Shown: positions 2,189 to 59,692, numbered from the stretch's first letter. The stretch: DNA of 60,325 nt from a virus (IMGVR_UViG_3300031689_000003:1-60325), one strand, 5' to 3'. The notes: generated from the letters alone by a model not told the origin. Numbers and translations are program-made.

Positions 2189-2204
2189 GTGTCTTCAAAG
2201 ACAC
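2189..2204. repeat. 16-bp dyad motif copy 1
   Basis: GTGTCTTCAAAGACAC between the promoter and the ATG at 2226. Confidence 0.9.
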
Positions 2205-2225
2205 TCCTCACAAATCAAATCAATT

Positions 2226-3317
2226 ATGTGTATTATTATTATCAAACAAAAAGGTAATGTGATGTCAAGAGAAATCGCAAAGACATCATCAAAAATTAAT
2301 CCTCACGGATTAGGAATCGTTTGGCTCGATACGTTCGAGGTAACTTATCACGAATCCAAAGAGTATCAGCAGTTACTTACTACACGTCCGTTTATCGCAC
2401 ACTTTAGATATGCTACAGTAGGTAAGGTAGGATTATCAAACACGCATCCATTTGTATGCGGTAAGAACAAGGATGAACTATTAATGCAGAATGGAACTAT
2501 CAGAGGGATAGGAACAGATGAGATGTGCGACAGTAAAGTATTAGCTATCTCACTTGGAAACATTAAGAGGCAGGATTGGAAGAGAGAACTTGAGCAATAT
2601 GACTCAAGGTTTTGTAGTGTAAACTTACGCACACGTTCATTCCAAATTTATAATCGTAACCTATATACTTATAGAGATGGCGTTTGGTATTCTAAAACAA
2701 ATGTATTGCAGGACAATTTGGTTGCGGTGTACGGAACTCTTAAGAAAGGTTTTGGTAACTATAATGCATACCTTACAAACTCAAAGCATTTAGGTAGCGG
2801 AGTAACAAACGAAAAGTATCCATTGGTTGTTGATGGATTACCTTACCTGCTACCACAAGCAGGTGTAGGTCACAATGTAAAGGTTGATGTATTCAAAGTA
2901 AGTGATGTAACGTTCAAGAAGTTAGACCAACTTGAAGGACATCCAAGATGGTACAAGCGAAAGCAAATAGAAATTAATATGGATGGCAAGCCAAACCTAA
3001 CTTGTTGGGTTTACTTTAATCCTAAAGTGGTTGACCCAAGAACAGAATTTGTTCAGTCATTTGAGTATAGTCCATACCAAATGCAACAAACTGTAGGAGA
3101 TGTGCAAGATGACTGCACAACTGAAACTGATGAAGCACCATTAATAAATCATTATCAATATGACTTTGGTTGGGATGACAATGACTTTCCAACTAATGAT
3201 ACACCAACGTGTATTGATTGTTACAATGATGTAGAGCACGATGGATTTAGTAATTATTATTGTTCCTCTTGTGGTGGGTGGTTCAAGGAAGACGAGGTCT
3301 TGAAGTATCAAGAGTAG
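2226..3317 (+). CDS. Class II glutamine amidotransferase fused to gamma-glutamylcyclotransferase (AIG2-like) and a C-terminal Cys4 Zn ribbon
   Basis: True start is MCIII (Cys2 Ntn nucleophile). GATase-II motifs: HFRYAT, NTHPF, QNG, CDS. GGCT motifs: VAVYGTLKKG.N, LDQLEGHP.WY.R. C-terminus has CIDC...CSSC. Confidence 0.85.
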   Translation: MCIIIIKQKGNVMSREIAKTSSKINPHGLGIVWLDTFEVTYHESKEYQQLLTTRPFIAHFRYATVGKVGLSNTHPFVCGKNKDELLMQNGTIRGIGTDEMCDSKVLAISLGNIKRQDWKRELEQYDSRFCSVNLRTRSFQIYNRNLYTYRDGVWYSKTNVLQDNLVAVYGTLKKGFGNYNAYLTNSKHLGSGVTNEKYPLVVDGLPYLLPQAGVGHNVKVDVFKVSDVTFKKLDQLEGHPRWYKRKQIEINMDGKPNLTCWVYFNPKVVDPRTEFVQSFEYSPYQMQQTVGDVQDDCTTETDEAPLINHYQYDFGWDDNDFPTNDTPTCIDCYNDVEHDGFSNYYCSSCGGWFKEDEVLKYQE

Positions 3318-3329
3318 TCTAAAAGGGTA

Positions 3330-3345
3330 GTGTCTTCAAGGACAC
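3330..3345. repeat. 16-bp dyad motif copy 2, within extended hairpin 3324-3351 preceding hammerhead 2
   Basis: GTGTCTTCAAGGACAC; AGGGTAGTGTC-TTCAAG-GACACTATCCT. Confidence 0.9.
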
Positions 3346-3350
3346 TATCC

Positions 3351-3401
3351 TCCGTATCAAGATGTTTGTCTTGGCTGATGATTCCATAAGGATGAAACGG
3401 A
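3351..3401 (+). ncRNA. Type III hammerhead ribozyme 2 (predicted cleavage after GUA, A3356)
   Basis: Stem III TCCGT(3351-3355)/ACGGA(3397-3401); stem I TCAAGA-TGTTTG-TCTTGG; CTGATGA 3375-3381; stem II TCC-ATAA-GGA; GAAA 3394-3397. Confidence 0.88.
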
Positions 3402-3418
3402 AACTTAAATTAAATTAT

Positions 3419-3637
3419 ATGTCACCAAAAATTAAAGAAGCTATAGCAGTTTTAAACAAGGCAGGATATGTAACATCATTATGGCACATTAGCGATGTAC
3501 AGAACAACTACGTATGCACCATATCTGAGGCAGAACTTATCTTGGAAGAGGTACTATCGTGCGAACACACAACACAAATTATTAACGAAGCTATCGATTA
3601 CGAAGCTGAACAAAAAGAATTAGAATGTCAAGAGTAA
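3419..3637 (+). CDS. Hypothetical protein (probable start MSPKIK)
   Basis: 3' part of ORF 3362..3637; the upstream part is the ribozyme. Confidence 0.6.
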   Translation: MSPKIKEAIAVLNKAGYVTSLWHISDVQNNYVCTISEAELILEEVLSCEHTTQIINEAIDYEAEQKELECQE

Positions 3638-3771
3638 CTAAGAGTACAGAGATTATTCAAATGTTGGAAAAAACTATCAACAGAGGAGGGGATGAAAAAA
3701 CAATCATCACACTCAAAAGAAAATTAAAAGAACTTAAAAAAAATCATACAGATGGCAATAGTACAGAATGA
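3625..3771 (+). CDS. Small hypothetical protein (48 aa, MSRVTKSTEII...)
   Basis: Manual translation; fills the gap and overlaps both neighbours. Confidence 0.45.
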   Translation: MSRVTKSTEIIQMLEKTINRGGDEKTIITLKRKLKELKKNHTDGNSTE

Positions 3772-4045
3772 ATTAATAACGTTAAAAGATGGGTTTAATT
3801 GGTACAAACTGAATGAAGTTCAAGCCTACAAATGTTGGAATGAATCAGTATTTGAAATATACGCAGTTTTTGACGATGAGACTGAGAGTTTATTAGAATC
3901 GTTAGAGGAAATTAAAGAAGCATTTGAGCAAAATACTGCCGTTTGTATGGCAGTAGGTCAGGCTAAACCTAAACCTTGGTTTCATCAGGCTAAAAAAACC
4001 CTGATATCAGGACATTGGTACGTAAAGGTATCAGACATAAATTAG
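3752..4045 (+). CDS. Hypothetical protein
   Basis: ORF track. Confidence 0.6.
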   Translation: MAIVQNELITLKDGFNWYKLNEVQAYKCWNESVFEIYAVFDDETESLLESLEEIKEAFEQNTAVCMAVGQAKPKPWFHQAKKTLISGHWYVKVSDIN

Positions 4046-4073
4046 GTTTTGTCTAAATTAAGTGTTACTTTTG
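4042..4073 (+). promoter_or_regulatory. Early promoter, -7 box TACTTTTG with TTAGG-N3-TGTCTAAATT
   Basis: Same architecture as 2136-2167. Confidence 0.7.
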
Positions 4074-4100
4074 TTTAATCAATCAGTAAAATCAAATCAA

Positions 4101-4301
4101 ATGAGCGAATACACACCACCAAAAGACGTAAAAGAAATTCAGAACGCAAGTTTAGAGCGTATCAACGAAATTGTTATGGACTCTAATTGGTCGAATCCAC
4201 TAACAATGCGTGCTTGTTTTGACAGAGCACTTGAGTTAGGATACGATGGAGGATTTCCAATATCTTTATATTACAACCTTAAACGAAACATTAAACTTTA
4301 A
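4101..4301 (+). CDS. Hypothetical protein (probable start MSEYT)
   Basis: ATG after AAATCAAATCAA leader, downstream of the promoter. Confidence 0.6.
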   Translation: MSEYTPPKDVKEIQNASLERINEIVMDSNWSNPLTMRACFDRALELGYDGGFPISLYYNLKRNIKL

Positions 4302-4311
4302 ATTAAATCAA

Positions 4312-4554: not shown

Positions 4555-4557
4555 ACT

Positions 4558-5263: not shown

Positions 5264-5387
5264 GACAGACTCTTCAACAAGAGCAAGGGTGTCTTCAAAG
5301 ACACTAAATTGCAACAAGCTATTAACAGAACTATTTGAATCATTTGGCGAGCAATATCAGACCAAATTAAATAAAGAATTAAAATGA
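5235..5387 (+). CDS. Small hypothetical protein (50 aa, MRKTNSDN...)
   Basis: Manual translation; ATGA overlap with next gene. Confidence 0.45.
   Translation: MRKTNSDNHRTDSSTRARVSSKTLNCNKLLTELFESFGEQYQTKLNKELK
5289..5304. repeat. 16-bp dyad motif copy 3
   Basis: GTGTCTTCAAAGACAC. Confidence 0.9.
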
Positions 5388-5686
5388 AATTAGATATTTT
5401 TAATAAGTACGTAGACGAGGTGTGTAACCTTTTCAACATAGACGAAGAGACATTATTTATAAAATCAAAACGAAGAGATATAGTGGATGCAAGACATCTA
5501 CTATATTATTTGTGTTATACAAGACCAATGAGAATAGTTTATATACAAGAGTATATGGCAGACAGAGGTTACACAATCAATCACTCCTCTGTAATCCACG
5601 GTATCTCTATTGTCGGAAAGAAACTCGACAATGATACGGACTACGTGAAGAGCGTAAAAGACATACAGAAATGGCACTTAGTTTAG
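5384..5686 (+). CDS. DnaA C-terminal (domain IV)-like HTH protein 1
   Basis: VCNLFNI.EE.L..KSKRRDIVDARHLLYYL...NHSSVIHGI resembles the DnaA_C signature. Confidence 0.7.
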   Translation: MKLDIFNKYVDEVCNLFNIDEETLFIKSKRRDIVDARHLLYYLCYTRPMRIVYIQEYMADRGYTINHSSVIHGISIVGKKLDNDTDYVKSVKDIQKWHLV

Positions 5687-6733: not shown

Positions 6734-6734
6734 T

Positions 6735-7472: not shown

Positions 7473-7617
7473 AAAATTAGTGTCTTTAAGGACACAAAGG
7501 CGTGTGTTATGGTTTAACGTTCCAATGAACTGCAACACTCGTAGGGAGAGAGAGATTCTAATCCTAAATACCATAGAACTATTGGAGCAAAATATAAACA
7601 TTACTAAAATCAATTAA
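7456..7617 (+). CDS. Small hypothetical protein
   Basis: 3' part of ORF 7420..7617 from the first ATG. Confidence 0.45.
   Translation: MMSFFRKLVSLRTQRRVLWFNVPMNCNTRREREILILNTIELLEQNINITKIN
7480..7495. repeat. 16-bp dyad motif copy 4
   Basis: GTGTCTTTAAGGACAC. Confidence 0.88.
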
Positions 7618-10574: not shown

Positions 10575-12027
10575 TGTAATAGAAAGACGAGTCGGCTTTT
10601 CAAATGAGATGATGTTTAATCAATGCTCTTTGTTAGCCGAAATCGTTAATAAAACAAAAGAGGTAAAGGTAGGTCGAGGCAAAAGTGTACAAGTAATTAC
10701 TCAAAAAATGTATACAACAAGTAGCGAGGCTATAGATAAAATAAACAGAAGCGTTCAACATTACAAAGAACTAATGGAATCTAAAGAAACAAAAATAAAA
10801 TTAAGAGATTATCAGAAACAAATTAGCAGAGATGGGTGCATAAAGTTATTCAGCAATGGATTTGTATATCTTGCTATGGAGGTAAGAACGGGAAAGACAC
10901 TAACAAGTTTAAGTATGGGTGTACTAATGGGATGTAAGAACGTATTGTTTGTTACAAAAAAGAAAGCTATCAGTAGTATTGAATCTGATTATAATCTTCT
11001 TGCTCCTGACTATAACATCACGGTAATAAACTATGAGAGCATACACAAATTACCCGAGTCGGGTAATTACGATTTAATAATTCTTGATGAAGCACATGGA
11101 ATGGGAGCGTTTCCTAAACCAAGCAAGAGGGCTAAACAAGTAAAAGATATTATTAAAAATTATAGCCCCTATGTTATTCTATTGTCGGGTACACCAACTC
11201 CCGAATCATATAGTCAGATGTATCATCAAGTGTATGGAATACCAAAGAATCCTTTTACATCCTTCAAGAATTTTTATAGGTTCTGTGATGAGTATGTTAA
11301 TGTAACCGACAGAAAGATAAATGGCCTAATGATTAGGGATTACTCTAAAGGTCTTGACAAAATTGTAGAAGCAATGAAGCCACATACAATTAGCTATTCT
11401 CAAAAAGAAGCAGGCTTTAAAGTAAATACTCGTGAGCATTTTATGTATGTACCAATGAGCGAATTAACTTATAAGTTAACGGCCAAGTTAAAAAGAGATT
11501 TAGTTATAGAGGGTAAGGAGGAAACTATATTAGCTGATACACCCGTAAAACTTATGATGAAGCTACATCAAATGTTCTCGGGAACGGTTAAGTTTGAGTC
11601 AGGCAACTCTACTATATTAGATTTATCTAAAGCAACACACATCTACGATAATTTTGGTGATGTTAAGATTGGAATCTTCTATAAGTTTAAGGAAGAACTT
11701 AAAGCTTTAATGCAAGTCTATGGAAAAGAAAACCTAACTACAGAACTTAGTGTCTTTGAAGACACAGAAAAATCTATTGCATTACAAATTGTTTCGGGAC
11801 GTGAGGGAATATCTTTACGAAAGGCAAAGGCTTTGGTGTACTACAATATAGACTTTAGTGCTACAAGCTATTGGCAATCAAGAGATAGAATGACAACTAA
11901 AGATAGATTAGAAAGTGATGTGTATTGGATATTTTCAGAGAACGGAATTGAAAAAGAAATCTACGCAGCGGTAAGCAAGAAGAAGGATTATACTGTTCGA
12001 CACTTTAAAAGGGATTTATTATCTTAG
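10555..12027 (+). CDS. SF2 (SNF2-like) helicase
   Basis: LRDYQ, MEVRTGKT, IILDEAH, LSGTP, SGREGISL, QSRDR. Confidence 0.88.
   Translation: MMQMETNVIERRVGFSNEMMFNQCSLLAEIVNKTKEVKVGRGKSVQVITQKMYTTSSEAIDKINRSVQHYKELMESKETKIKLRDYQKQISRDGCIKLFSNGFVYLAMEVRTGKTLTSLSMGVLMGCKNVLFVTKKKAISSIESDYNLLAPDYNITVINYESIHKLPESGNYDLIILDEAHGMGAFPKPSKRAKQVKDIIKNYSPYVILLSGTPTPESYSQMYHQVYGIPKNPFTSFKNFYRFCDEYVNVTDRKINGLMIRDYSKGLDKIVEAMKPHTISYSQKEAGFKVNTREHFMYVPMSELTYKLTAKLKRDLVIEGKEETILADTPVKLMMKLHQMFSGTVKFESGNSTILDLSKATHIYDNFGDVKIGIFYKFKEELKALMQVYGKENLTTELSVFEDTEKSIALQIVSGREGISLRKAKALVYYNIDFSATSYWQSRDRMTTKDRLESDVYWIFSENGIEKEIYAAVSKKKDYTVRHFKRDLLS
11750..11765. repeat. 16-bp dyad motif copy 5 (inside helicase CDS)
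   Basis: GTGTCTTTGAAGACAC, encodes SVFEDT. Confidence 0.9.
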
Positions 12028-12031: not shown

Positions 12032-12277
12032 ATGGCAACCGAGCAACAGATACAGAGTAAGAGAATTAAACAACTTGAAGAAGAGGGTTATTTTGTTCTC
12101 AAATTAATCAAAACAAATAAGAATGGAATCCCTGATATCCTTGCTATTCCTCCTGACTCCAATGTAATTTTTAGTGAAGTTAAAACACCTCAAGGTAGAC
12201 TATCCAAACTACAAGAGTACAGATTAAAAGAGTTAAAAAAATATGGATTTAGGACAGAAGTATATCGAGGAGAATAG
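12032..12277 (+). CDS. VRR-NUC domain nuclease / resolvase
   Basis: EQQIQ...GIPDILA...FSEVKTPQGRLSKLQ. Confidence 0.85.
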   Translation: MATEQQIQSKRIKQLEEEGYFVLKLIKTNKNGIPDILAIPPDSNVIFSEVKTPQGRLSKLQEYRLKELKKYGFRTEVYRGE

Positions 12278-12596
12278 GTTTCACATAGAAGAATGGTTTG
12301 CCGATAAAATGGTCGGGTTACCTTTTGATACCCAAACAGAAATTATATACTCTATTGCAACTAACGTTCACTCGTTTCCATTAGTGGAGGGTTGGACTCA
12401 AGAAATCTTTGGAGTTGTAAAAGAAGACCATTTATTTTATGCACTTGAATATCTAAATGAAAAGAACGGAATTCCTATTATTTGTGATATAAATTTTATC
12501 GAATCAGACGAATACTTAGACGCTATATTAAATAAAAATACAATTGAATCATATGAAATTAAAATTAAAAAGACATCAGTTCCCAAGAGAAGTTAA
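12243..12596 (+). CDS. Hypothetical protein
   Basis: ORF track. Confidence 0.55.
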   Translation: MDLGQKYIEENRFHIEEWFADKMVGLPFDTQTEIIYSIATNVHSFPLVEGWTQEIFGVVKEDHLFYALEYLNEKNGIPIICDINFIESDEYLDAILNKNTIESYEIKIKKTSVPKRS

Positions 12597-13116
12597 TCTT
12601 ATTGTAAAATTAACGAATGAAAGATTTGGAACGGACTTACAAACGAAAGGCAGAAAACGTAATAGTGTAAACGCACGAATGACTTGTTCTTACATACTTA
12701 GAAGAAGGGGTTTTACATTGACACAGATAGGAAGTTTTTTAGGTAGAGACCACGCTACTATATTGCATTACTTAAAGAATATAGAATGGTATATCAAAAC
12801 AGACTTACAGTTTAACAGAATGTTTACAGAGATAGAAGAAGACTTTAACAGTTCAGCTAATCCCGTGCACGTTATGGGTGTTGAGGAGTTAAAAAAGGAA
12901 GTTTTCTCTTTGAGAAACGAATTAAAAGAATTAGATTTGAGGTTAGAAGGACTAAAAATTGCTCAATCTACGGCTAAAGCAAAGAGTCTTCGAGTAGAAA
13001 GTATCTTTGAAATAGTTAGACAACGAACAAGATTAGGTACAGAAAAAGAAATAGAGAATAAATTACATCGATGGTTCAATGGTGTATACGATAAGCCAAC
13101 AGACCACATTCAATGA
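12544..13116 (+). CDS. DnaA C-terminal-like HTH protein 2 with coiled coil
   Basis: KGRKRNSVNARMTCSYILR...TLTQIGSFLGRDHATILH. Confidence 0.75.
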   Translation: MNHMKLKLKRHQFPREVNLIVKLTNERFGTDLQTKGRKRNSVNARMTCSYILRRRGFTLTQIGSFLGRDHATILHYLKNIEWYIKTDLQFNRMFTEIEEDFNSSANPVHVMGVEELKKEVFSLRNELKELDLRLEGLKIAQSTAKAKSLRVESIFEIVRQRTRLGTEKEIENKLHRWFNGVYDKPTDHIQ

Positions 13117-13320: not shown

Positions 13321-13734
13321 ATGAGATTTGAATCGCAAGCAGACTTATCAAGAGAACGCAAAGCTATTACAACATTCGTTAATATATTTAAAGGTTCGTT
13401 TAAAAAACTTGACCCTAATGATATAGACTTTCGTGTGTTTGATAGTGAAGGAGATATGATTGCCTATGTTGAAGTTAAAGGTCGTTTAAAAAAATACAAA
13501 GATGCATTCCCTTTACCCGTAGCAGCACGTAAACTTGTGAAGTTAGCAGACAAAAGATTAAATCCCGTAATGATATGGGCTTGTGAAGATGGAATAGTAT
13601 ACTCTAAGGTCTGTCAATTAAATGGTAGCATAAGATGGGGAGGAAGGCCTCCACGTAAAGATGCTTACAATGACCAAGAGTTAATGATTTATTTTGACAA
13701 CACAAAAAACTTTAAGTACATACCTTATGCATAA
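13321..13734 (+). CDS. PD-(D/E)XK-fold nuclease-like protein
   Basis: IDFRV...AYVEVKGR motif. Confidence 0.6.
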   Translation: MRFESQADLSRERKAITTFVNIFKGSFKKLDPNDIDFRVFDSEGDMIAYVEVKGRLKKYKDAFPLPVAARKLVKLADKRLNPVMIWACEDGIVYSKVCQLNGSIRWGGRPPRKDAYNDQELMIYFDNTKNFKYIPYA

Positions 13735-19800: not shown

Positions 19801-22800
19801 CATTATATTATTTAACTCCACTATAGATTCAGCGTCATTAAATATTGTTATATTTCTTTTCTTACGTTGTGCAGGTGTTAGTTCTTTAACTTTTTTAAAG
19901 AAGTCATCTTTAGTAAATCTTTTTCTGTTGATAGTATACAAAGGATTCTGTTCCCTTATATCTACATCTGAAGTTTGATTTCCTGAAAACGTTTTAAATT
20001 CAAGGTTAGTTTGATTCTCTTGTGACAATAGTGTCTTTGAAGACACAATACCTGCTAACTCTTTTTTAATCTCACTTATTGTTTCACTAAATATTTCTCT
20101 TTTGTTTGTCGTAGCAGACAGTTCTTGTTTCGCTGCCAAAAGTTCCATTACTCTATTTTCTAAAGCAGGATTAGTTGAAACATCTTGTTTACTGTTCTGA
20201 CCTGTATCAAGCAATAGTCTTGCTTCTTTTCTAAGTCCTATGTTTTCATTTATTCTTTGACCTGCCTCGGGAGTAATCTGTCCAAGTTCAACCATATTAT
20301 TAGTCCAAGTAGCTATTCGTTTAGAAGAATATTTTGACTCTGCTAAAAACTTTAAGTTTTCAAATTGTGCTGCTATATTTATGTTGTTTCTTGAACGACC
20401 ATCCATAAACATATTTATTGCAGCAAAAGGAGCACTCATACCAAATCCACCAACTACTTCATCCATAACATCAGCCATACTTTCTTCTTGACCTGCTGCT
20501 TTCTGTGCTAAATATTCTCCTAATCCTTCAGACAATGGGTCAAGTGTGACAACACTCGCTACACCTGCAGCGGCCCTTGTTCCTCTTGAAGCTAATACAC
20601 CTACCGGGAATAGTCTACCTGCTAAACCCATACTTAATCTGTCTACCGCACCAATAGTAAGTCCACGAGCAAGCCCTATACGTCTTCCTTCTTCCCAAAC
20701 TCTTTCGTCTTTTAATGCTTTAACCATTTCATCAGGGTCAGCAGCGTTGTAACCTATATTGCTGATTGCCTCATATACAGAGTTGGTGTATTCTAAAGCT
20801 ACCATTGTAGCAGCAACACCATTTTTTAATCCATCTATTGAACCTCCCACAACACCTGCAGTCGTTGTTGCAAAACCTATAGGCCCTGCAGTAAAACCTG
20901 TTGCTCCCATAGTACCACCTACTATTGCCTCTGTTGCTACTGTACCTGCAACTATCTTCATACCATAAGGTAACATCTGACTAATTGATTGAGCGGCCAT
21001 ACTTGTTGCAATCTCAAAAGGGTCATCAGAAAACGCATCAAATCTTTCTTCATATGTAAGTGCCCCGTGATATCTACTTAATGCTCTACCTTTAGGTTTA
21101 TTTTGTGAAGCGTTTTTATAATTAACAATATATTCTGCAGCTTCTCTTATTGATAAGTCATCATCCATATCAGTAATGCCTAAAGCAAGTGCTAATATTT
21201 TTTGATTTGCTTTACCATTTTTCCATCCACCACTCCATTCGTTTGATAATGAAGACCAATTTTCAACAAACTCACCACGAGCCTGCTTGTCTACCTTAGC
21301 ACTTAAAAAAGTTTTTGCTAACTCATATTGATTAGCAGCATTAGATTTTTCAAAGTCAACCTCTGATTGTTTTAATAATAATTGGTTTACTCTATATGCC
21401 TCATCTTCAGTTTTTGGTTTGTATTTAATTAGGTTTTCTGCCTTTATTCCAAACTCATTTAGAGTAGCGTAGTTAAGAGCATCTGCCTCTTGACTGTATG
21501 CGTAGTTTACTTTTGCAGCTACTGATAATTGTTTCTGTAATTTTTTATCTACAAGTACATCAAAGTCTTCTCTTACTGTTCTAAACTCATCAGCGTTAAC
21601 CGTCTCTCTTAGTTTTTCTGCTTTCTCTTTAAGATTAATAAGATATTCTGCAATGTCGCTTCGTTGTTTACCATCTACATATAAGTATGCAAATTTTTCT
21701 TTTAGGTTTTCAGGAACATCTTTTTCTCTGAATTGCATCTCATCACTTCCAAAACTACCATCAGTATTTTGTTTACCTGCGGCTTTAGCAAGGTCATAAC
21801 GTTGTCCTTCTATAAAGGTTATCTCATCCATTATACCTTCGTAGTCATCTAACTCTTTTCTATATGTTGTGTAATTAAGACCTCTGTCTGCATAGAATAA
21901 TTTCGCTTCAGAGTCTATTGTACTTACGTCTTTCCAAGAACCCTCAGCAACTTCTTCTGCAGCTTCAGCAGTATCGAAAGTAAATACTTCACCTCTTTTC
22001 AAAGCCTCTTTATATGCTTCCATTCCTTTTTTCTCCATCCACCACATTGGGTCAGAACCATATCGTTGTCCTGTAGTTTTTGGGAAAAGTGTAGGATATA
22101 CTACTTCGTTACCGTCAATATTTGCTGACTCCAATAACACCGTAGATTCTGTTCCATCATCATTAATACGAGCAGTACTTCTAATGTTTCTTATTTTTGT
22201 AGCTACATCAATTACATCTTGCTCAGGAGCAGATAATTGTTCATTAGGATTACGAGCATAAGTTGAAACAAAATTTCTTAGCTTAGCTGATTCCTCTTCG
22301 GATGACATTAAAGTTTTAAGACCTATTAGTTCTACTTCTGTTGAACCGGGTGCAATTACTTCTAAATAATCTCCACCATTTTTTTTAGTTTTTCTAAATA
22401 TAAAACCATACCTCCCATAAAGATTTGTAAAATAAGTAACGGCATCTTCTCCGTCCTTGTCTATAGAATCAGAATCCGTTGCAGATAATGCTAATTCAAA
22501 ATCGGTAGTCTTAAGTATTTTTTTTCTATCCTCTATACCTTTTGTTATCTCTGCATCAATAACTAATTTCTCTGCTGCTTGTCTCTCTATGTTAGCAGGT
22601 TCACTTGCTTTAGTTTCTTGTAAGGTTAATGCAAAGTCAGCAGCCCCTTGACTATTAGCTTCGTCTATTGCTTCCTGTGTAGGATACAGGCCTCCTAATC
22701 TTCTGTCAACAGGAGACTGATAATCCGATTCGCCTATATTAGTAGGGACGTATTCAGGTTCTTCACTATTCTTTTCTTCTTGGCGTAATTTAAAAGCTTC

Positions 22801-35573: not shown

Positions 35574-35614
35574 AAAAAAAAGGGAGGCTCATCAGAATAT
35601 TTATTGCCTCCCTT
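35574..35614 (-). terminator. Intrinsic terminator after the major capsid gene
   Basis: - strand AAGGGAGGC...GCCTCCCT followed by T7. Confidence 0.8.
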
Positions 35615-40680: not shown

Positions 40681-42905
40681 CTAATAATTTCGCTTATGTT
40701 CCCTTTGTTATTATACCTCGCAAAGTTAATGTTTATTTTTGATTGTTTTTTCTCAGGTTGATAAAGATGTTTTTGAGTTGCCATTATAGCTAAACCGGAC
40801 GATATACTTGCATCAAACTTAGTTCTATTGCTAATATCAAACTTTGCCCAATCCTCTAATGTTCTTACAAACGGCATCGTACCAATATCATCATTATCTA
40901 AAAAACCTACATATTGTTCTATATAAGATTCTATAGCAGAAGCGTGTGCCTGCTTAACTGCTTCACTTGAATTGGGTATACCACCTAACTCTCGTTCAGT
41001 TTTAGATAATTTCGTAAATTGTTTATCAGGTCTATTCACACTAAATCCTCTATATCCTCTGTTTTTAAAATGATATAATAATCTTGGTTTATTATTTTCT
41101 ACTAATATAGGCATTCCATAAAAAACACAAGCCATTAATACCTCTTCAAAAAATATTTCTGCAGTTTGTGGACGTGCAACATATTCTAAAAAGAATTCAT
41201 TACTTGGAGCATCATCCATATTAAACTTAGTTAATCCGTGCAAAGAACCATTAGAACCTCCTCCTCCAACTGTTCCTGAAATATCATAACTATCACATCC
41301 AAACGCTCCTATGTGTTCATTACCGGGATACTTAATTCCATTTTTTACTATAACTCTATTTTGTAAGTCTCTCTTAGGAGTCCAACTAACTATAAACCTA
41401 CCATTTTTATTAGGACTCATTATAACTTTACTATCTCTAATACCATCTTGCCAATTAAAACTACATCTCGTAGTGTGATGTTCAGTTACAAGTGTGTCAT
41501 TAAAATCTACTTGCTGATATATTCTTGTAAGATTAAAAAGAGATTGTTTGCTTTCATCTCTAAATGCGTGAGATTCAGTTCTTGGGAATTGTCTGTAATA
41601 TTCATTTAATGCATCTGCATCATTTTGTAATGAGTCTACTTCATCTTGCCAATAATCAATTGCTCCTTTATGAATTAACTCATCATCAATTCCAAGTATT
41701 GGAGACTTAGGAGTTTTAAAAACAGGCATTCCAAACTTATCTATAAAACCTTCCATATTCCATTCCATAGGAATAAAAAGATTATACAATCCGCTTTTGG
41801 TTTGCCCATTGGCATTCCTTTTATCTGCGTTTGAATCGTCATAAAGTTTTTTAAAGTTATCTCCACCTTTGCTCAAAGCATTAGAGGTAGAACCCATCAT
41901 ACATTTACCAATAATTTTACTACCTAATCTTAAACACGTTTTAGTAACACGCCAATTGTTTAAAATATTATTTGGTTTAATCCATTTACCACTCTCATCG
42001 TGAACTAATAATAATAATTTCTCTCCATCATAAGAGTTATCATCTGTATTTTTCCAATCTATTGTAGTGTCAAGACCTTGAATGTCATTGTTAGCTACAG
42101 TAGTCATATTTTTTTTAGTAATTTTTGCAGCAGGAACTCTAAAAGCTAATTCTGTTTTAGGTTTATCCATACCATCTTGCACAGGTTTAAAGAAAAAAGG
42201 AAGTCTATTTGCAATAGGAACAACTTTATCAGTAAACATTTTTTTTGCATCCCCTCCTGTTTTAGAAAGTATACCAACTCGTGCATCTTTTACAAGTGTA
42301 CCTGTATTGACACACTCTTCACTACCCATATAAGAAAATCCTGAACGCCTAATTTTTAAATAACATATCCCAAAACTTCTTTTATCTGCTCTACAAGCTT
42401 CCCAATAAATATAAAATATTCTATTTGCTTCCCTATAGTCAGGATATCCAATATCAATATTTGTCCATTGTATGTACATATAATGCCCACCTGTAATATA
42501 AGTAGACTTACCATTGCTCATAAAGAAAATCCCTTCTTCTCTTCGGTCAAATTCTTCTTCAATGTAATCTACCCATCGTTCTTTAAAATCAGAAGGCTTA
42601 TCATTCCATTGAAATATAGATTGTATTTTTTGTAGTTCGTTTGGAAGATTAGTTCTTTCCCAATATTGTTCTTCTTTTTTCTTGTGTCTTTGAAGACACT
42701 TTTTAGGTTCAAGAGGTAAGCCTATTTTTAAACCTTGTATATCTAAAATTTCTCCTATCTGACCTGTCTTTGAAATTACTACAAAATTATATTTTTGGTC
42801 ATATCCATACACCCAAGACTTAGCTTTGTTTTTAATGCTAAGTACTTTTTTAGGTATGTAGTTTTCTACTACTTTATATAAATTATTTTGACCTTCGTTC
42901 TGCAA
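40677..42905 (-). CDS. terL: Terminase large subunit
   Basis: LKIRRSGFSY (Walker A variant), LLVHDESGK (Walker B), MGST, FGCDSYD, KFDASISSG nuclease motifs. Confidence 0.9.
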   Translation of the reverse strand: MQNEGQNNLYKVVENYIPKKVLSIKNKAKSWVYGYDQKYNFVVISKTGQIGEILDIQGLKIGLPLEPKKCLQRHKKKEEQYWERTNLPNELQKIQSIFQWNDKPSDFKERWVDYIEEEFDRREEGIFFMSNGKSTYITGGHYMYIQWTNIDIGYPDYREANRIFYIYWEACRADKRSFGICYLKIRRSGFSYMGSEECVNTGTLVKDARVGILSKTGGDAKKMFTDKVVPIANRLPFFFKPVQDGMDKPKTELAFRVPAAKITKKNMTTVANNDIQGLDTTIDWKNTDDNSYDGEKLLLLVHDESGKWIKPNNILNNWRVTKTCLRLGSKIIGKCMMGSTSNALSKGGDNFKKLYDDSNADKRNANGQTKSGLYNLFIPMEWNMEGFIDKFGMPVFKTPKSPILGIDDELIHKGAIDYWQDEVDSLQNDADALNEYYRQFPRTESHAFRDESKQSLFNLTRIYQQVDFNDTLVTEHHTTRCSFNWQDGIRDSKVIMSPNKNGRFIVSWTPKRDLQNRVIVKNGIKYPGNEHIGAFGCDSYDISGTVGGGGSNGSLHGLTKFNMDDAPSNEFFLEYVARPQTAEIFFEEVLMACVFYGMPILVENNKPRLLYHFKNRGYRGFSVNRPDKQFTKLSKTERELGGIPNSSEAVKQAHASAIESYIEQYVGFLDNDDIGTMPFVRTLEDWAKFDISNRTKFDASISSGLAIMATQKHLYQPEKKQSKININFARYNNKGNISEIIR
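42684..42699. repeat. 16-bp dyad motif copy 7 (inside terL)
   Basis: GTGTCTTTGAAGACAC; encodes CLQRH on - strand. Confidence 0.9.
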
Positions 42906-56387: not shown

Positions 56388-56840
56388 ATGTTTATTTCAA
56401 GGAAAAAACCACCTTTCGATTATCTAAAATATTGGAGAGTTATAAGATACTTTATAAAAGCTAAATATAAACTTACAACAGGAGAACTCGATGTTATGTT
56501 ATTCCTATATACAGAATCTTATTTTAGTAAAGATAAATTTAATGAGTTTGATGAATTAATATCTTGGGACGTTAAGAGATTCGATAAACTTTTAACGGAA
56601 GGTTGGATATGCGTCTTCCGTAAACGTTCAGGAAAGACCAAAGCATTGTACGAAGTGTCGTACAAAGGAAGACGTATGTTGAGTACTATGTATAAAAAAT
56701 TAAACGGAGAAGAAATACCTGAATCCCCCTCCGTTAATCCTATCTTTTTAAAAAATGTTTCTTACACCGACAAGGTGTATCGCAATATGATTATCGAAAT
56801 GAATCTCTTTATAAGACAACAACGACATCTTGCTCCTTGA
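56388..56840 (+). CDS. Winged-helix (MarR-like) DNA-binding protein (probable start MFISRK)
   Basis: LTTGELDVMLFLY...FDKLLTEGWI..FRKR....ALYEVSYKGRRML; only + strand gene in the late arm. Confidence 0.65.
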   Translation: MFISRKKPPFDYLKYWRVIRYFIKAKYKLTTGELDVMLFLYTESYFSKDKFNEFDELISWDVKRFDKLLTEGWICVFRKRSGKTKALYEVSYKGRRMLSTMYKKLNGEEIPESPSVNPIFLKNVSYTDKVYRNMIIEMNLFIRQQRHLAP

Positions 56841-57066: not shown

Positions 57067-57152
57067 TGGTTATCTTCTTTATATATTTGAAAAAGTACAA
57101 CAAGGCATACAAACAAACATATGAACCCTGTATATACCAAATCTCCTATCAT
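57063..57152 (-). CDS. 29-aa single-TM peptide between groEL and groES
   Basis: MIGDLVYTGFICLFVCLVVLFQIYKEDNQ; TAATG overlap with groEL, ATGA overlap with groES. Confidence 0.55.
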   Translation of the reverse strand: MIGDLVYTGFICLFVCLVVLFQIYKEDNQ

Positions 57153-58741
57153 TAGTCTTTATCTTCGTAAGTTCTTGCCATTGTTATAATAGCGTTTGTA
57201 GAAAGTATGGTTACTGCTACTGACACCGCATTCTGTAATGCTTCCTTAGTTACCTTCAACGGGTCTATTACTCCCATTAGATACATATCTCCCCATACTC
57301 CTGTCTTAACATTAAGACCATAACTCTTATTATCCACATCCATTTCCTTTTCAGAAGGTGCAATCTTTAGTCCTGCGTTCTTCCAAATTTGATGAAGAGG
57401 TGCACGAAGAGCGTTAGCTAACATCATACCTGCAACACTATCGTCTTGCTTTAAGGATTCTGTATATAAAGCAACTCCTCCTCCGGGTAAGATACCCTGC
57501 TCAAGTGCTGACCTTACTGCACATACTGCATCGTCTACTCTGTCGTATTTTTCTTTTTGTTCTAAGTCTGTTTTACCACCTACGTAGATTACACCAATAC
57601 CACCTGTCAAAGAAGCAATACGTGATAAGATAAATTCTTTCTCGTGTTTAACAACTGATAACTTGTGAGCATCCCATAACTGAGAAACTCTTTCTGTTAC
57701 CTTATCTGAAATAGTCTTGTCCTCTTTAAGTATAACTGTATTGTCTCTACCTACAATTATTTTGCTTGCAAATCCTAAATCTTCAAATGACATATGACTT
57801 AAGTCATCTCCTGTCTTCTCAGAAAAATATGTAGCACCTACCGAGATTGCTATGTCATTCATCAACTCGTGTTGCTTGTATCCAAATTGTGGAGGTGTAA
57901 TGTTACAGACCTTAATGTCACGCTTCATTACGTTAGCAGCTAATGTATTAATAACACTCCCTGAACAAGGAGCAATGATAAGCAATTTCTTTCCCTCTGA
58001 AATAATTGGCTTTAGTATGTTTTCTATTTGGAGTACGTTGCTTATCTCTGCATCTGATACTAAGATGTGTGTGTCTTCAAAGACACATTCGTCTTTCTTG
58101 TGGTCATTAATAAAAAGATTAGATGTATAACCTCTATCAACTTTCAGCCCTGTGGTTGTCTCAAAGTATGTATCTGATGTTTGGGAACGGTCAACAGTCA
58201 CGATACCATTTTTGCCAATGTCATTATACACCTTTGAGATTATGCTTCCAATCTCTGTGTCATTATTCGCTGCGATAGTAGCAACGTGTTTCAATTTTGT
58301 TTTTGTAACTGCCTTAGCACTATTCTTTAATGAACTAACAATTGCTTTAGTCTTCTCTACGATATCACGCAGAACCTCTGTCTTGTTTACGTCATCATTA
58401 AAACGACTCATACCTTCTTTTACTAAAGCCTCTGTAAGAACAATAGCCGTTGTAGTTCCGTCACCTGCTGCGGTAGCCGTTCTGTCGGCTGCTTCCTTCA
58501 TCATCTGAACTGCAAGATTCTCTACAGGGTCTAACAATGAAACTGCTTTTGCAACAGTCACTCCATCTTTAGTTACCGTGATTCCGTGTGTATGGTTTGG
58601 TGATTCTATTAGCACCGTCTGCCCGGATGGGCCTAAAGTTGACTTAACTGCAGATGCAATCGTGCTAATCCCTGCTACTAATTTGTCCCTACCTTCTTGG
58701 TCAAACTTTAAATTCTTTGGTGTGTACCCTATTTCATTCAT
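57152..58741 (-). CDS. groEL: Chaperonin GroEL
   Basis: AVKSTLGPSG, VTKDGVTVAK, AGDGTTTA, GILPGGG, GVIDPLKVT; no GGM tail. Confidence 0.96.
   Translation of the reverse strand: MNEIGYTPKNLKFDQEGRDKLVAGISTIASAVKSTLGPSGQTVLIESPNHTHGITVTKDGVTVAKAVSLLDPVENLAVQMMKEAADRTATAAGDGTTTAIVLTEALVKEGMSRFNDDVNKTEVLRDIVEKTKAIVSSLKNSAKAVTKTKLKHVATIAANNDTEIGSIISKVYNDIGKNGIVTVDRSQTSDTYFETTTGLKVDRGYTSNLFINDHKKDECVFEDTHILVSDAEISNVLQIENILKPIISEGKKLLIIAPCSGSVINTLAANVMKRDIKVCNITPPQFGYKQHELMNDIAISVGATYFSEKTGDDLSHMSFEDLGFASKIIVGRDNTVILKEDKTISDKVTERVSQLWDAHKLSVVKHEKEFILSRIASLTGGIGVIYVGGKTDLEQKEKYDRVDDAVCAVRSALEQGILPGGGVALYTESLKQDDSVAGMMLANALRAPLHQIWKNAGLKIAPSEKEMDVDNKSYGLNVKTGVWGDMYLMGVIDPLKVTKEALQNAVSVAVTILSTNAIITMARTYEDKD
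58071..58086. repeat. 16-bp dyad motif copy 8 (inside groEL)
   Basis: GTGTCTTCAAAGACAC; encodes CVFEDT on - strand. Confidence 0.9.
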
Positions 58742-58760
58742 ATTAATTAGATTTATTCGT

Positions 58761-58768
58761 CAAAGATA
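58761..58768 (-). promoter_or_regulatory. -7 box TATCTTTG for groEL
   Basis: CAAAGATA on + strand, 20 nt upstream of the groEL ATG. Confidence 0.65.
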
Positions 58769-58856
58769 CAATTAATTATACTCTATACGCAAAATAACAA
58801 AGAGTAAAAGAGGAATGTTTAATAATAGTCTAAATGCTAAACTCAGCTTTTAAGGT

Positions 58857-59010
58857 ATCCCTATAGGGGGGGTAGTAATAATACTATAATATTAGTTTAC
58901 TTATAGAACATTTAAGAGTTAATATAGACATTATCGACAACTACTTAGAAATCAATTAGTTACAAACAAAAATTCAGCACAAATCGACATTAGATCGGCA
59001 CACTATGACA
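58857..59010. repeat. Origin-like element copy B (homologous to 8011-8150)
   Basis: Same blocks in the same order and orientation as copy A. Confidence 0.65.
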
Positions 59011-59011
59011 C

Positions 59012-59040
59012 AAAAAAAGAGAGGGTAATCACTCCCTCTC
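59012..59040 (-). terminator. Intrinsic terminator
   Basis: - strand GAGAGGG...CCCTCTC followed by T7. Confidence 0.75.
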
Positions 59041-59064
59041 CTAAATCAATTACTAATCAATCAA

Positions 59065-59256
59065 CTATCTATAAAATCCTTTACGACCTTCTGCTAACTC
59101 TATACCGTCAGCAATCATATTAACTTCTTTGACTCTCTTCATAGTCTGCTTTATATTTGCAGCCTGTTGAATTCCCGTTATACCCGGTTCTCTGTCATTA
59201 ATAAGACGACCATTCTTAATAGTCAATCCTCCTGTGTTCTTATATTTCATATCCAT
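59065..59256 (-). CDS. Small hypothetical protein
   Basis: ORF track; followed by a terminator. Confidence 0.6.
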   Translation of the reverse strand: MDMKYKNTGGLTIKNGRLINDREPGITGIQQAANIKQTMKRVKEVNMIADGIELAEGRKGFYR

Positions 59257-59392
59257 ATTTTATGTTTATACTTATTAATCCTAAGAATAAAATTATATCC
59301 CCATAATCATATTCCTCATTTATTCTGTACCAAGCAAACCCTAATGCGAATCCAATGCGTAGCCTGTTCTCTATGATGACTTGGTAATTCAT
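59240..59392 (-). CDS. Small hydrophobic protein (probable start MNYQV, leaderless)
   Basis: - strand reads TATATTTG(59404-59397)-CTTT-ATG. Confidence 0.55.
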   Translation of the reverse strand: MNYQVIIENRLRIGFALGFAWYRINEEYDYGDIILFLGLISINIKYGYEI

Positions 59393-59557
59393 AAAGCAAA
59401 TATACGAAAAAAATATTATCAGATATATGTAGTGTTTTGGTTCTATGGGGTCGCACGCCAACACCCGGACTCAGGAAAGCCAAAATCTGACAGACAAAAA
59501 AAAACTTTTTCAGAATTTTTTCTCGGATTTTTTGGCGTTTTCGTTTAGCCCTACCTA

Positions 59558-59661
59558 CCTGCGTAGACTATACCTATGCAATCCCTTACTATGCTTACAT
59601 ACCTGCCCTATTTACCTGCACGTTTGCCCTGCTCGAGTCCTGCTCCTGCTCCTGCTCCTGC
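59558..59661 (+). repeat. CCTGC cluster including a (CCTGCT)3-CCTGC tandem
   Basis: CCTGC at 59558, 59602, 59615, 59628, 59639, 59645, 59651, 59657. Confidence 0.7.
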
Positions 59662-59676
59662 AGGCAAGACTGAGTA

Positions 59677-59692
59677 GTGTCCTTGAAGACAC
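59677..59692. repeat. 16-bp dyad motif copy 9
   Basis: GTGTCCTTGAAGACAC (reverse complement of copy 2). Confidence 0.9.

Follow-up and report, generated by a model that had tools for sequence, protein, structure and literature searches.

A 16-bp palindrome, GTGTCTTYRAAGACAC, occurs nine times in the window, by which we mean the whole 60,325-nt stretch of viral DNA analysed here (IMGVR_UViG_3300031689_000003), against 0.00 copies expected (mean of 100 dinucleotide shuffles). With slightly less than even confidence, we take this dyad to be the recognition site of a symmetric phage homodimer, most likely the product of the gene at 59898..end, that regulates early transcription. The nine dyads start at 2189, 3330, 5289, 7480, 11750, 20031, 42684, 58071, and 59677, and the looser pattern GTGTCN6GACAC recovers the same nine sites with 0.02 expected. 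The set in the window is sharply bounded: nine sites carry at most one mismatch to GTGTCTTYRAAGACAC, none carries two, and a single chance-like site carries three. A preliminary description, made from the sequence alone, had listed at least nine copies at these positions; all nine were found, and the codon-shuffle count that it proposed as a check, run as 300 synonymous-codon shuffles of the ORFs, gives 0.09 copies on average and never more than 1. Its architecture of invariant 5-bp arms around a constrained spacer has to be replaced, as the palindrome extends over all 16 bp, its 7-bp arms enclosing a YR step at the centre.

The dyads, which are assigned to neither strand, fall into two groups. 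Copies 1 (2189..2204, GTGTCTTCAAAGACAC), 2 (3330..3345, an A11->G variant), and 3 (5289..5304) are intergenic. Copy 1 lies 29 nt 3' of the start of a TAnnTTTG box, the Bacteroidota-type -7 promoter box at 2160..2167 (+ strand, TATCTTTG), and 21 nt 5' of the ATG of a GATase_4 plus GGACT (gamma-glutamyl cyclotransferase-like) gene (2226..3317, + strand), on the other side of which copy 2 is placed, with 12 nt between it and the preceding stop codon and 16 nt between it and the next ATG. Copy 3 follows a stop codon by 25 nt and precedes a DnaA-HTH-like gene by 79 nt. Copy 4 (7480..7495, TA centre, A11->G) sits 7 nt past the stop of the exonuclease gene and overlaps only a doubtful ORF of 53 aa, while copy 9 (59677..59692, a T6->C variant) belongs to the ~400-bp non-coding region separating the two arms, 221 nt 5' of the ATG of the candidate binder gene and flanked by divergent TAnnTTTG boxes. 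At 7480 and 59677 there are only short ORFs with no homologue at all or with one weak homologue in the two closest relatives. The earlier placement of copies inside genes is right for the SNF2-type helicase (copy 5, 11750..11765, SVFEDT), the 3088-aa giant ORF (copy 6, 20031..20046, VSSKT), the N-terminal region of terL (copy 7, 42684..42699, KCLQRH), and the phage GroEL (copy 8, 58071..58086, VFEDT in the context CVFEDTH), with the peptides as described, but five of the nine copies are in effect non-coding. Both orientations relative to transcription occur, and by their coordinates seven of the nine copies lie inside 14.0 kb spanning the arm junction, again as described. Both record ends cut a gene: an unknown-family gene at 1..819 (+ strand) lacks its start and ~36 N-terminal residues, and the candidate binder gene, the first of the early arm (59898..60325, + strand), runs off the end. 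A tenth dyad is probably missing beyond the record end, because in relatives the candidate gene is followed by one.

The dyad is specific to this phage family, ~60-kb marine Bacteroidota podophages with 9-19 copies per genome. Homologues of window proteins are encoded by 118 of the 120 IMG/VR stretches that contain it, and five whole relatives carry 13-19 dyads each against 0 in the reversed control. In a 3.6-Mb Cytophagales MAG, all eight dyads lie on a single 56-kb phage-like contig. Host-class chromosomes are not enriched: the host-chromosome search suggested by the preliminary description returned no excess in 400 further Bacteroidia genomes, 36 of which have one or two one-mismatch matches, close to the reversed control. 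This bears on the idea that the phage exploits a host regulator, for example a CRP/FNR-type dimer, by imitating its operator with the dyad. CRP/FNR-type operators have 5-bp arms and a 6-bp spacer, a layout that the 5+6+5 reading of the dyad resembles, but a host factor of this kind is barely credible given that the Bacteroidia genomes are no richer than the control at up to one mismatch, that matches in the genome collection are scattered singles in all phyla, bar one phage-like contig, and that dyad types differ among closely related phages.

Inside genes, selection acts on the nucleotides, and the peptide changes along with them. The dyad forms the longest stretch of unchanged DNA in both the helicase (17 nt, runner-up 8) and terL (18 nt, runner-up 11). 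All dyad codons are frozen at their synonymous sites in these two genes, compared to a background of 31/222 and 74/455 codons, respectively, the outcome of the synonymous-site comparison in relatives that was proposed beforehand. The helicase reads SVFEDT or SVFKDT only when the dyad is present and LDEFNNTN or similar otherwise, and its choice between E and K tracks the flip of the dyad centre. The terL dyad keeps its orthologous position throughout the family, type-D genomes included. Among 90 loci examined, 43 of type A encode CLQRH and 40 of type D encode SLQRD (KSLQRD in type-D genomes), and these 83 include no hybrid form; the exchange of Cys..His for Ser..Asp thus accompanies the type switch. 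The giant gene has one dyad per relative, at non-homologous positions.

The dyad types themselves indicate how the site is read. In relatives, what distinguishes types B, C, and D is the symmetric swapping of positions 3/14 and 6/11; the switch is concerted, every copy of a genome changing together. The centre is always YR and is flipped between orthologous sites, and A is the preferred base at position -1 of the symmetrised flank (59%). On the sense strand, the 44 sites with a single asymmetry comprise 17 G.U, 19 A.C, and 8 other combinations, that is, no excess of G.U over A.C inside the 16-mer. The symmetric concerted swaps and the lack of this bias favour half-site recognition on DNA over an RNA stem. 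The preliminary verdict that the dyad is not a protein motif and not an RNA signal tied to one strand is supported, because the peptide tracks the DNA and the sense strand shows no wobble bias within the 16-mer. A symmetric dimeric binder is the best reading in view of the palindromic YR centre, the symmetric concerted switches, and the predicted homodimeric candidate. Such a homodimer would read two half-sites, 5'-GTGTCYTY, on double-stranded DNA.

At some copies RNA hairpins do matter, since the flanks of intergenic copies pair above chance with more G.U than A.C on the sense strand. At early sites, flank positions 1-4 comprise 104 Watson-Crick pairs, 34 G.U, 17 A.C, and 85 other; at the post-capsid site of relatives, positions 1-5 comprise 130 Watson-Crick pairs, 26 G.U, and 0 A.C. 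There the dyad is the apex of a canonical terminator with a covarying lower stem (35 loci). The preliminary description had missed that intergenic dyads commonly cap a longer transcript hairpin. Of the four intergenic window copies, three form the core of such a hairpin (z -3.8 to -5.1): copy 1 at 2182-2209 (-12.6 kcal/mol, z -4.2), copy 2 at 3324-3351 (12 bp, -17.5 kcal/mol, z -5.1), and copy 3 in an extended hairpin at 5283-5312, while copy 4 is a bare hairpin. Some intergenic dyads sit atop genuine hairpins or terminators of the transcript. A hairpin can have a palindromic apex at no cost, which would explain why intergenic copies are also built into transcript hairpins.

The same features could mean that the dyad is an RNA element whose 6-bp stem and UYRA loop are recognised by an RNA-binding protein or an endoribonuclease of the phage, perhaps the early candidate itself, for processing, stabilising, termination, or antitermination of the early polycistronic mRNA or for translational repression of the gene ~20 nt downstream. 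The location in intercistronic gaps close ahead of start regions, the longer-hairpin cores, the terminator apex above a covarying lower stem, pairing that survives the type switches (G3:C14 to C3:G14, U6:A11 to G6:C11), and a weak look-up lead to RegA-like translational repressors all point this way. However, within the 16-mer A.C mismatches are about as frequent as G.U pairs, the would-be loop positions 7-10 (T, Y, R, A) are palindromic nonetheless, orthologous sites show both centre orientations, and copies occur at convergent gene ends as well as, upstream of the candidate gene, between divergent promoter boxes where these are recognisable. Moreover, the intrinsic terminator of the window at 35574..35612 (- strand, 3' of a 483-aa structural gene) keeps the lower stem GGGAGGC/GCCUCCC and the U8 run with an unrelated 17-nt loop replacing the apex; it functions without a dyad, and the role of the dyad is therefore separable from termination. 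An intrinsic terminator is a G+C-rich hairpin with a U run after it on the sense strand; none of the nine window copies has a T run on its 3' side, a feature seen only at the orthologous post-capsid copy in relatives, and the whole window yields no Rfam family at gathering score. Overall, an RNA element is unlikely, although far from negligible. Lambda boxB, a hairpin of two copies that is recognised by N as strand-specific RNA with a specific loop, shares with the dyad a short fixed sequence of about 15-16 nt, and its reader is a small early phage protein acting on transcription; it differs from the 9-19 dyad copies with their palindromic loop and lack of sense-strand pairing bias.

Hairpins also serve as promoters for the virion RNA polymerase of N4-like phages. 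The virion RNA polymerase of crAss-like phages is, in the part of the source available, a giant virion protein with a DFDxD catalytic motif (10.1101/2020.03.07.982082). The giant protein was rejected as such an enzyme, as six giant proteins share no conserved DxDxD; they have no Pfam or PHROG match.

Most dyads occupy short gaps separating early genes, 2-25 nt past a stop codon and 15-23 nt ahead of the next ATG. In the GenBank relative MW202828.1, an 11.4-kb part of the early arm contains all 14 dyads and the late 43 kb are free of them; most lie 3 nt past a stop codon and 16-23 nt ahead of the next ATG, a pattern that speaks for regulated expression along the early operon. The box at 2160..2167 is the sole host-type promoter box adjoining a dyad, an arrangement kept in relatives, and a TAnnTTTG box occurs within 80 nt upstream of 6 of 61 early intergenic copies. 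Therefore, classical promoter occlusion fits few sites. A dyad upstream of the candidate gene is found in 19 of 23 genomes, in 15 of them at -214 to -290, and lies between divergent promoter boxes wherever boxes are recognisable. Other dyads are found at convergent gene ends. For transcriptional control by a homodimer, we envisage that the candidate protein would be made first from the early arm and would then fill the dyads: one in the divergent control region 5' of the candidate gene itself, one 3' of the GATase/GGACT promoter, and those in the early-gene gaps. Bound protein would act as a roadblock that times or stops read-through of the early operon, as mycobacteriophage stoperators do, while the late-arm dyads (terL, the giant gene, GroEL, and the post-capsid terminator of relatives) would be a hold on late operons. 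Roadblocks inside terL, the helicase, and the giant gene are odd for a phage whose proteins, as scanned in the window with Pfam among the searches, include no integrase, recombinase, or other sign of lysogeny.

The dispersal of dyads over both arms could alternatively reflect genome-organising sites at which a dimer condenses, partitions, protects, replicates, or draws in the DNA by ParB-parS, KorB-OB, or matS logic. One non-homologously placed copy per giant gene and a late-arm spacing of about 6.6-10 kb in two relatives (G003 and G005) suggest that what counts is the presence or spacing of copies rather than a particular regulatory position, and the candidate is the first early-arm gene by position. 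Yet dyad positions are tied to gene boundaries, and MW202828.1 does without late-arm copies altogether; genome-wide coverage is therefore dispensable. The proteins scanned contain no ParB/Srx, ParA, or SMC-like domain, and the candidate's fold search lists P1 ParB no higher than rank 25 (E 1.7, not significant). We consider this role distinctly improbable; from the preliminary proposal of a dimeric genome organiser, the symmetric dimer is retained and the parS/matS role is not, as the Pfam-scanned set holds no ParB/ParA-like protein. KorB, a ParB-family protein working with partition proteins, has 12 OB operators on plasmid RK2, and the P1 C1 repressor has dispersed, asymmetric operators. These systems resemble the dyad in that a dimeric or global regulator has about a dozen copies of a palindromic site on a ~60-kb replicon, some at promoters and others distant, but neither the candidate nor the window proteins scanned have a ParB/Srx Pfam domain or a ParA/KorA partner.

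The three binders proposed earlier (56388..56840, 5384..5686, and 12544..13116) have homologues in dyad-less relatives and are therefore poor candidates; the product of 59898..end fits better and is our best candidate, apparently a new early phage protein of an unnamed family. It has 142 aa in the record and 199-243 aa in relatives (about 215 aa). The gene was found in 12 of 12 loci that have a dyad type and sufficient DNA upstream, as well as in the genomes G001-G005 and MW202828, and in none of five dyad-less loci. Its putative recognition segment is FGWQKSFFYK. The residues following FG are [WYFV][QKD][KN]S in 29 type-A loci, SKA in type B, SRS in type C, and SKA, SKG, GKA, QVK, SRS, or NKS in type D, so that the putative recognition helix appears to track the dyad type, a link confounded by relatedness. 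The protein is predicted to form a homodimer: the model scores 0.72 (best of three controls 0.00), runs agree in at least 95% of contacts, and partner pLDDT is at least 81. Of proteins solved as one-chain pairs, 20 of 30 attain the mark for a homodimer, compared to 1 of 23 that were solved as single chains; these counts are only rough because our own alignment was used. No known DNA-binding fold or family was matched in Pfam, PHROGs, the PDB by sequence, or with 40 distant members, and Foldseek against the PDB gave no significant match (best E-values 0.56 and 0.62). A putative helix-turn-helix is our reading of the predicted helices 76-84 and 88-98 only. A protein-language-model look-up points to T4 RegA-type translational repressors at 0.91, within the chance range.

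The variable early region also allows for a recombination or nuclease signal, in which dyads would be cut or nicked by the PD-(D/E)XK protein (13321..13734) or the VRR-NUC protein (12032..12277), starting recombination-dependent replication, or would be linkers that shuffle early cassettes in the manner of PeSL elements. Genes for a Sak-like annealing protein, an exonuclease, VRR-NUC, and PDDEXK_14 are present in the phage; small variable early genes have dyads on their flanks; and 96 nt around copy 2 match the relative G002 elsewhere in its genome. As precedent, the available parts of the sources describe the promoter/stem-loop (PeSL) cassettes of T4-type phages, which are thought to drive recombination (PMC2839356, PMC4122927). 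Shuffling would be a second-order benefit, however, and leaves the frozen synonymous sites of helicase and terL and the concerted switches unexplained. PDDEXK_14 is missing in the dyad-bearing G002, L272, and L279 and present in the dyad-less L273 and L277, and VRR-NUC occurs in dyad-less loci. We thus give such a signal very little probability. On these partial accounts, PeSL elements and dyads are both short conserved intergenic elements with a stem-loop, repeated among small early genes in a variable region, but PeSL is a composite of promoter and terminator, whereas the dyad has a promoter box nearby in only 6 of 61 early copies, a strictly palindromic 16-bp core, further copies inside genes, and types that switch in concert.

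The nearest analogue is the stoperator system of cluster A mycobacteriophages, of which the dyad system is not a member. In the portions of the literature available, stoperators are described for L5 gp71 and the TipsytheTRex repressor (PMC9283540, PMC6550527) as 13-bp asymmetric sites whose orientation follows transcription and which are read by a monomer with two DNA-binding domains (PMC9283540). The binder is an immunity repressor with an N-terminal HTH and a Stoperator domain, whose sites silence the prophage of a temperate phage and which has been suggested to block transcription at its start and during elongation (PMC9283540). As far as these accounts reach, both systems have many copies of a short site genome-wide, in promoters and short intergenic gaps, and one phage protein (here the candidate), site and binder diversifying together. 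In contrast, the dyad is a 16-bp palindrome in either orientation whose centre flips at orthologous sites, its candidate reader is a predicted homodimer with no sequence or significant fold match in the PDB, copies also lie in coding sequence, and no lysogeny genes were seen in the subset of ORFs scanned.

Two further genes, 1..819 and 2226..3317, match the co-distribution of the candidate with the dyad equally, a pattern that rests on about two loss lineages (L269-271; L273 with L277), and dyads flank the homologues of 1..819 in relatives. Conceivably, though with low probability, the three genes form one system comprising the early dimer, the 317-aa enzyme-like 1..819 protein, and the GATase/GGACT protein. 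The dimer would then be an address reader bringing both enzymes to the sites that mark the phage genome or its transcripts, about 10-20 in number, where they would modify DNA, RNA, or a bound host protein. If true, the three genes would encode site-directed chemical marking rather than a repressor.

The 16-bp dyad GTGTCYTYRARGACAC occurs nine times in the 60,325-base window, starting at 2189, 3330, 5289, 7480, 11750, 20031, 42684, 58071, and 59677, exactly where the preliminary description had placed it, against 0.00 copies expected by chance (100 dinucleotide shuffles). The looser pattern GTGTCN6GACAC finds the identical nine sites (0.02 expected), and mismatches to GTGTCTTYRAAGACAC number at most one at nine sites, two at none, and three at a single chance-like site. 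When the ORFs of the window are shuffled among synonymous codons, a check proposed with the original observation, 300 shuffles contain on average 0.09 dyads and at most one, versus nine real copies. From these occurrences, the most fitting description of the dyad is a 16-bp palindrome whose 7-bp arms flank a central pyrimidine-purine step. In the symmetrised flanks of 188 non-redundant sites, A at −1 and T at +1 are preferred (59%).

Non-coding DNA accounts for ~5% of the window and carries five of the nine dyads (p ~4e-5). Copies 2189, 3330, and 5289 are intergenic, while those at 7480 and 59677 lie only within short ORFs with no homologues or a single weak one in the two closest relatives. 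The remaining copies at 11750, 20031, 42684, and 58071 are written into the helicase, the giant ORF, terL, and GroEL, where they encode SVFEDT, VSSKT, KCLQRH, and VFEDT, respectively. The pattern of conservation indicates that selection on the dyad acts at the nucleotide level. When the window is compared with four complete relatives, the longest stretch of unchanged nucleotides coincides with the dyad both in the helicase (17 nt, the runner-up having 8) and in terL (18 nt, the runner-up having 11). Every dyad codon is the same in these genomes, while in the background one codon is kept at 31 of 222 invariant degenerate residues of the helicase and at 74 of 455 of terL; the synonymous-site conservation for which the preliminary description suggested looking is thus present in both genes. 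Moreover, SVFEDT, SVFKDT, or GVFKDT are found at the helicase site only where the dyad is present, the E/K exchange tracks a flip of the dyad center, and sites lacking the dyad encode LDEFNNTN, LSEFEDDN, LEEFSNTD, and others. In the giant gene, each genome of this set carries one dyad, at non-homologous alignment columns. The dyad is a plain example of a non-coding signal that takes precedence over the protein code.

Among GenBank entries, MW202828.1 is the nearest relative (its primase is 71% identical); it lacks the type-A dyad of the window and carries 14 exact copies of GTGTCGTTAACGACAC, which differs from type A symmetrically at positions 6 and 11. Other relatives contain GTCTCGTCAACGAGAC or GTCTCTTYRAAGAGAC, differing from type A symmetrically at positions 3 and 14; GTCTCTTYRAAGAGAC is widespread, with at least 120 IMG/VR stretches, 97 of the 120 listed encoding homologues of window proteins. 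At the orthologous terL position, 43 of 90 loci (not de-duplicated) combine CLQRH with a type-A dyad and 40 combine SLQRD with a type-D dyad; seven are degenerate, and hybrids of the Cys..Asp or Ser..His kind do not occur among the 90. All dyads within a genome thus switch together, and such concerted switching calls for a sequence-specific trans-acting factor that co-evolves with its sites. By this comparison, the terminase alters two residues to follow the dyad type. Essential proteins, terminase and helicase, that change amino acids to preserve a DNA site constitute a natural experiment, and at least four natural specificity types of one exact 16-bp site offer a testable handle.

The early arm runs rightward from ~59.9 kb through 13.7 kb and comprises small genes, a GATase/GGACT gene, a Sak-like annealing protein, an exonuclease, a primase, a SNF2-type helicase, a VRR-NUC protein, and a PD-(D/E)XK nuclease. 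Its dyads lie 2-25 nt past a stop codon, typically 15-23 nt ahead of the next ATG; in MW202828.1, most are exactly 3 nt past the stop. The Bacteroidota -7 box TAnnTTTG is found within 80 nt upstream of only 6 of 61 non-redundant early intergenic dyads, so most are not at promoters. In five of these six cases, the dyad is the one ahead of the GATase/GGACT gene, and the box begins 29-37 nt upstream of that dyad. By their placement, most early dyads are in the path of read-through transcription.

Alternatively, the dyad might act as RNA, through a hairpin that a phage protein recognizes. In 35 loci of relatives, the dyad after a 483-aa structural gene forms the apex of a textbook terminator followed by a U run, and the lower stem covaries (flank positions 1-5: 130 Watson-Crick, 26 G.U, no A.C, and nine other pairs). 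Flanks of early intergenic dyads likewise pair above chance (positions 1-4, n = 240: 104 Watson-Crick, 34 G.U, 17 A.C, 85 other), and hairpins with window copies 1-3 (2189, 3330, 5289) as their core reach -12 to -17.5 kcal/mol (z -3.8 to -5.1). For the three sparsely flanked coding copies and copy 7480, only the bare core folds (-7 to -8 kcal/mol), and the GroEL dyad has a few extra flanking pairs (-10.5 kcal/mol). Within the 16-mer, however, 44 non-redundant sites with a single asymmetry yield 17 G.U, 19 A.C, and 8 other combinations on the sense strand, so transcript pairing is not what is conserved there; a G.U wobble bias, an early impression from few sites, is not upheld. Positions 7-10, the would-be loop residues, keep palindromic symmetry, and the center flips between orthologous sites. 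Further, dyads also occur at convergent gene ends, and the conserved dyad upstream of the first early gene lies between divergent promoter boxes where these are recognizable. The most telling point in favor of DNA comes from the window itself, whose intrinsic terminator after the 483-aa structural gene (35574-35612, minus strand; stem GGGAGGC/GCCUCCC plus U8) is kept with an unrelated 17-nt loop at the apex in place of the dyad of the 35 relatives' loci. Terminator and dyad are thus separable. Our conclusion from these patterns is that a DNA site with two-fold symmetry is what has been conserved; in intergenic regions it is often lodged atop a predicted transcript hairpin, and we consider an RNA hairpin as the functional element unlikely. 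The earlier argument that the signal is neither a protein motif nor a strand-specific RNA signal holds up, given that the helicase and terL peptides follow the DNA and that the 16-mer displays no sense-strand G.U bias.

By its distribution, the dyad is a signature of the phage family rather than of a host. In IMG/VR, at least 120 stretches carry it, many from ~60-kb contigs, and window-protein homologues are encoded on 118 of the 120 listed. The five relatives whose sequences were read completely contain 13, 15, 13, 16, and 19 dyads (the last on a 41-kb fragment), compared to 0 in the reversed control. Conversely, a scan of prokaryotes, with each species represented by one genome, gives isolated single matches across all phyla, except for a 3.6-Mb Cytophagales MAG in which all eight dyads are confined to one binned 56-kb contig. 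The preliminary description had proposed a search of host-class chromosomes, where the dyad does not stand out: one-mismatch matches, one or two each, occur in 36 of 400 further Bacteroidia genomes, a number close to that of the reversed control, and every chromosomal match among the matches listed has a mismatch (seven matches lie outside those listed). On the genomes of these two scans, we reject a host regulon, and a host factor as the reader of the site is hardly credible. The exact dyad strings are absent from the literature searched, and the first 50 kb of Elemovirus NC_055853.1 contain neither GTGTCN6GACAC nor other repeated palindromes.

A dimer encoded by the phage that reads the dyads on DNA is the explanation we consider probable. 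Its identity was approached through 23 loci fetched via a DnaA-HTH-like early protein; single-protein searches added only one to two further loci. Five of the 23 (L269-271, L273, and L277, from about two lineages) are without any dyad type or other repeated 10-mer. Only three window genes are present together with the dyad, in loci whose DNA reaches them, and absent from these five: the first early gene (59898 to the record end, plus strand), the gene at 1..819, and the GATase/GGACT gene at 2226-3317. The latter two are enzyme-like and dyad-flanked. The 1-819 protein, for which family and sequence searches gave nothing significant, is of an unnamed family that conserves the motifs FTIGxExEK, GFERDSSCGYEA, and RCGGHIT; it may be amidoligase-like. 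Gene 2226-3317 encodes a GATase_4+GGACT fusion. The binders nominated in the preliminary description (56388..56840, 5384..5686, and 12544..13116) do not follow the dyad across the loci, and its proposal of a genome-organizing site seems improbable to us. PDDEXK_14 and VRR-NUC, tried as binders, do not follow the dyad either; that the dyad is a recombination or nuclease signal we regard as very improbable.

The product of the first early gene is our preferred, albeit tentative, candidate for the binder, with a likelihood somewhat short of even. It comprises ~199-243 aa in relatives, is unnamed in its sources, and is without a relative in Pfam, PHROG, or the PDB; 40 distant family members also lack Pfam domains. 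In confident AlphaFold models (pLDDT 81.8 full length, 89.9 for the N-terminal domain), the N-terminal domain is all-helical, and the C-terminal domain is small, with a beta-beta-beta-alpha arrangement; Foldseek with these models against the PDB retrieved nothing significant (best E 0.56 and 0.62). A predicted helix-turn-helix-like pair (residues 76-84 and 88-98) contains the segment that is conserved most strongly, FGWQKSFFYK. After FG, 29 type-A loci read [WYFV][QKD][KN]S, while type D has SKA, SKG, GKA, QVK, SRS, or NKS, type C SRS, and type B SKA; this agrees with co-evolution of segment and dyad type, a correlation confounded by relatedness. Homodimer prediction passed with 0.72 versus 0.00 for the best of three controls, a mark reached by 20 of 30 solved same-chain pairs and 1 of 23 solved single chains (rough counts, with our own alignment). 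The runs agree in at least 95% of contacts with partner pLDDT of at least 81, and the predicted interface is formed by residues 7-72 and 169-214, leaving helix 88-98 free. Upstream of the candidate gene, a dyad is present in 19 of 23 genomes, 15 times at -214 to -290 and often as a T6-to-C variant, pointing to possible autoregulation.

We infer binding, DNA target, and effect on transcription in one model, to which we assign nearly an even chance: the first early protein would bind the dyads on DNA as a homodimer and control transcription along the early arm, mainly as a roadblock. One promoter-proximal and one autoregulatory dyad would add to the roadblock sites, and the same protein might have some hold on late operons. 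In cluster A mycobacteriophages, the immunity repressor is reported to stop initiation and elongation on more than 20 13-bp stoperators in promoters and short intergenic spaces (PMC9283540). This is the nearest analogue, and the dyad system is similar in layout. In contrast to stoperators, the dyad is palindromic and orientation-free, and its candidate binder is a predicted dimer without similarity to the stoperator repressor; with these three defining features, the dyad system falls outside the stoperator class. KorB-OB on RK2, P1 C1, and lambda boxB each have one aspect in common with the dyad system, as do the PeSL cassettes of T4-type phages. We rate the dyad system as a putative multi-site phage regulator that is unusual in imposing sites on essential coding sequences, in its four or more specificity types, and in a candidate binder of unknown fold family. 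To our knowledge, regulation in marine Bacteroidota phages is almost unknown, and the large unnamed family of the candidate (357 clusters at 50% identity) provides a testable handle on it. If binding holds true, matched site and protein variants would be ready-made orthogonal operator/binder pairs for Bacteroidota genetics.

IMG/VR labels the window record linear and 100% complete. A gene is nevertheless truncated at each end: the ORF at 59898 runs off without a stop codon, and ORF 1..819 lacks ~36 of the N-terminal residues present in relatives. Some hundreds of bases, and with them probably one further dyad, seem to be missing. The leftward late arm contains structural genes, portal, terL, tail fibre, lysis genes, GroES/GroEL, and the giant 3088-aa ORF (13819-23085, minus strand), which is very poorly conserved (2317-3520 aa in relatives) and has no Pfam or PHROG match. 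Neither an RNA nor a DNA polymerase was found among the window genes. A virion RNA polymerase with hairpin promoters was considered for the giant protein and rejected; the conserved DxDxD and any family match are absent, and by the former test it is not a crAss-like virion RNA polymerase. The protein encoded at 26480-27268 (minus strand) has the C-terminal domain of a Crassvirus muzzle protein (E 3e-15), a link between crAss-like phages and the virion of this 60-kb podophage family. The chaperonins are GroEL (57152-58741) and two GroES-like proteins (56809-57066 and 43625-44188), one recognized by Pfam Cpn10 and the other by a PHROG co-chaperonin family. Between the arms, a non-coding region of ~400 bp (59440-59760), visibly richer in G+C on inspection, contains dyad copy 9, (CCTGCT)x4, three GCCCTAYYTACCTGC-like repeats, and other imperfect ones; it could be an origin or control region. 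The intergenic host-type promoters at 2125-2167 and 4031-4073 have a common upstream stretch, TTAGGnTnTGTCTAAATT followed after 5-6 nt by TAnnTTTG, pointing to a second early-promoter element that is conserved.

In metagenomes, the dyad offers an inexpensive marker for recognizing the phage family. Three type-D dyads lie within ~500 nt on L362, a 182-kb IMG/VR viral contig without a window-protein homologue in the stretch read, and the dyad may be used outside the 60-kb family too. Parts of window 1-10000 are found in six RNA libraries; in four, these are only short low-depth contigs, some spanning dyads 2189, 3330, 5289, and 7480, which cannot reveal transcript ends. Near-identical DNA to window 1-10000 (0.99 of sampled words) is present in public marine metagenome runs, those listed stemming from 13 studies (2014-2025), and by these matches the phage itself, or a strain very close to it, recurs or is widespread.
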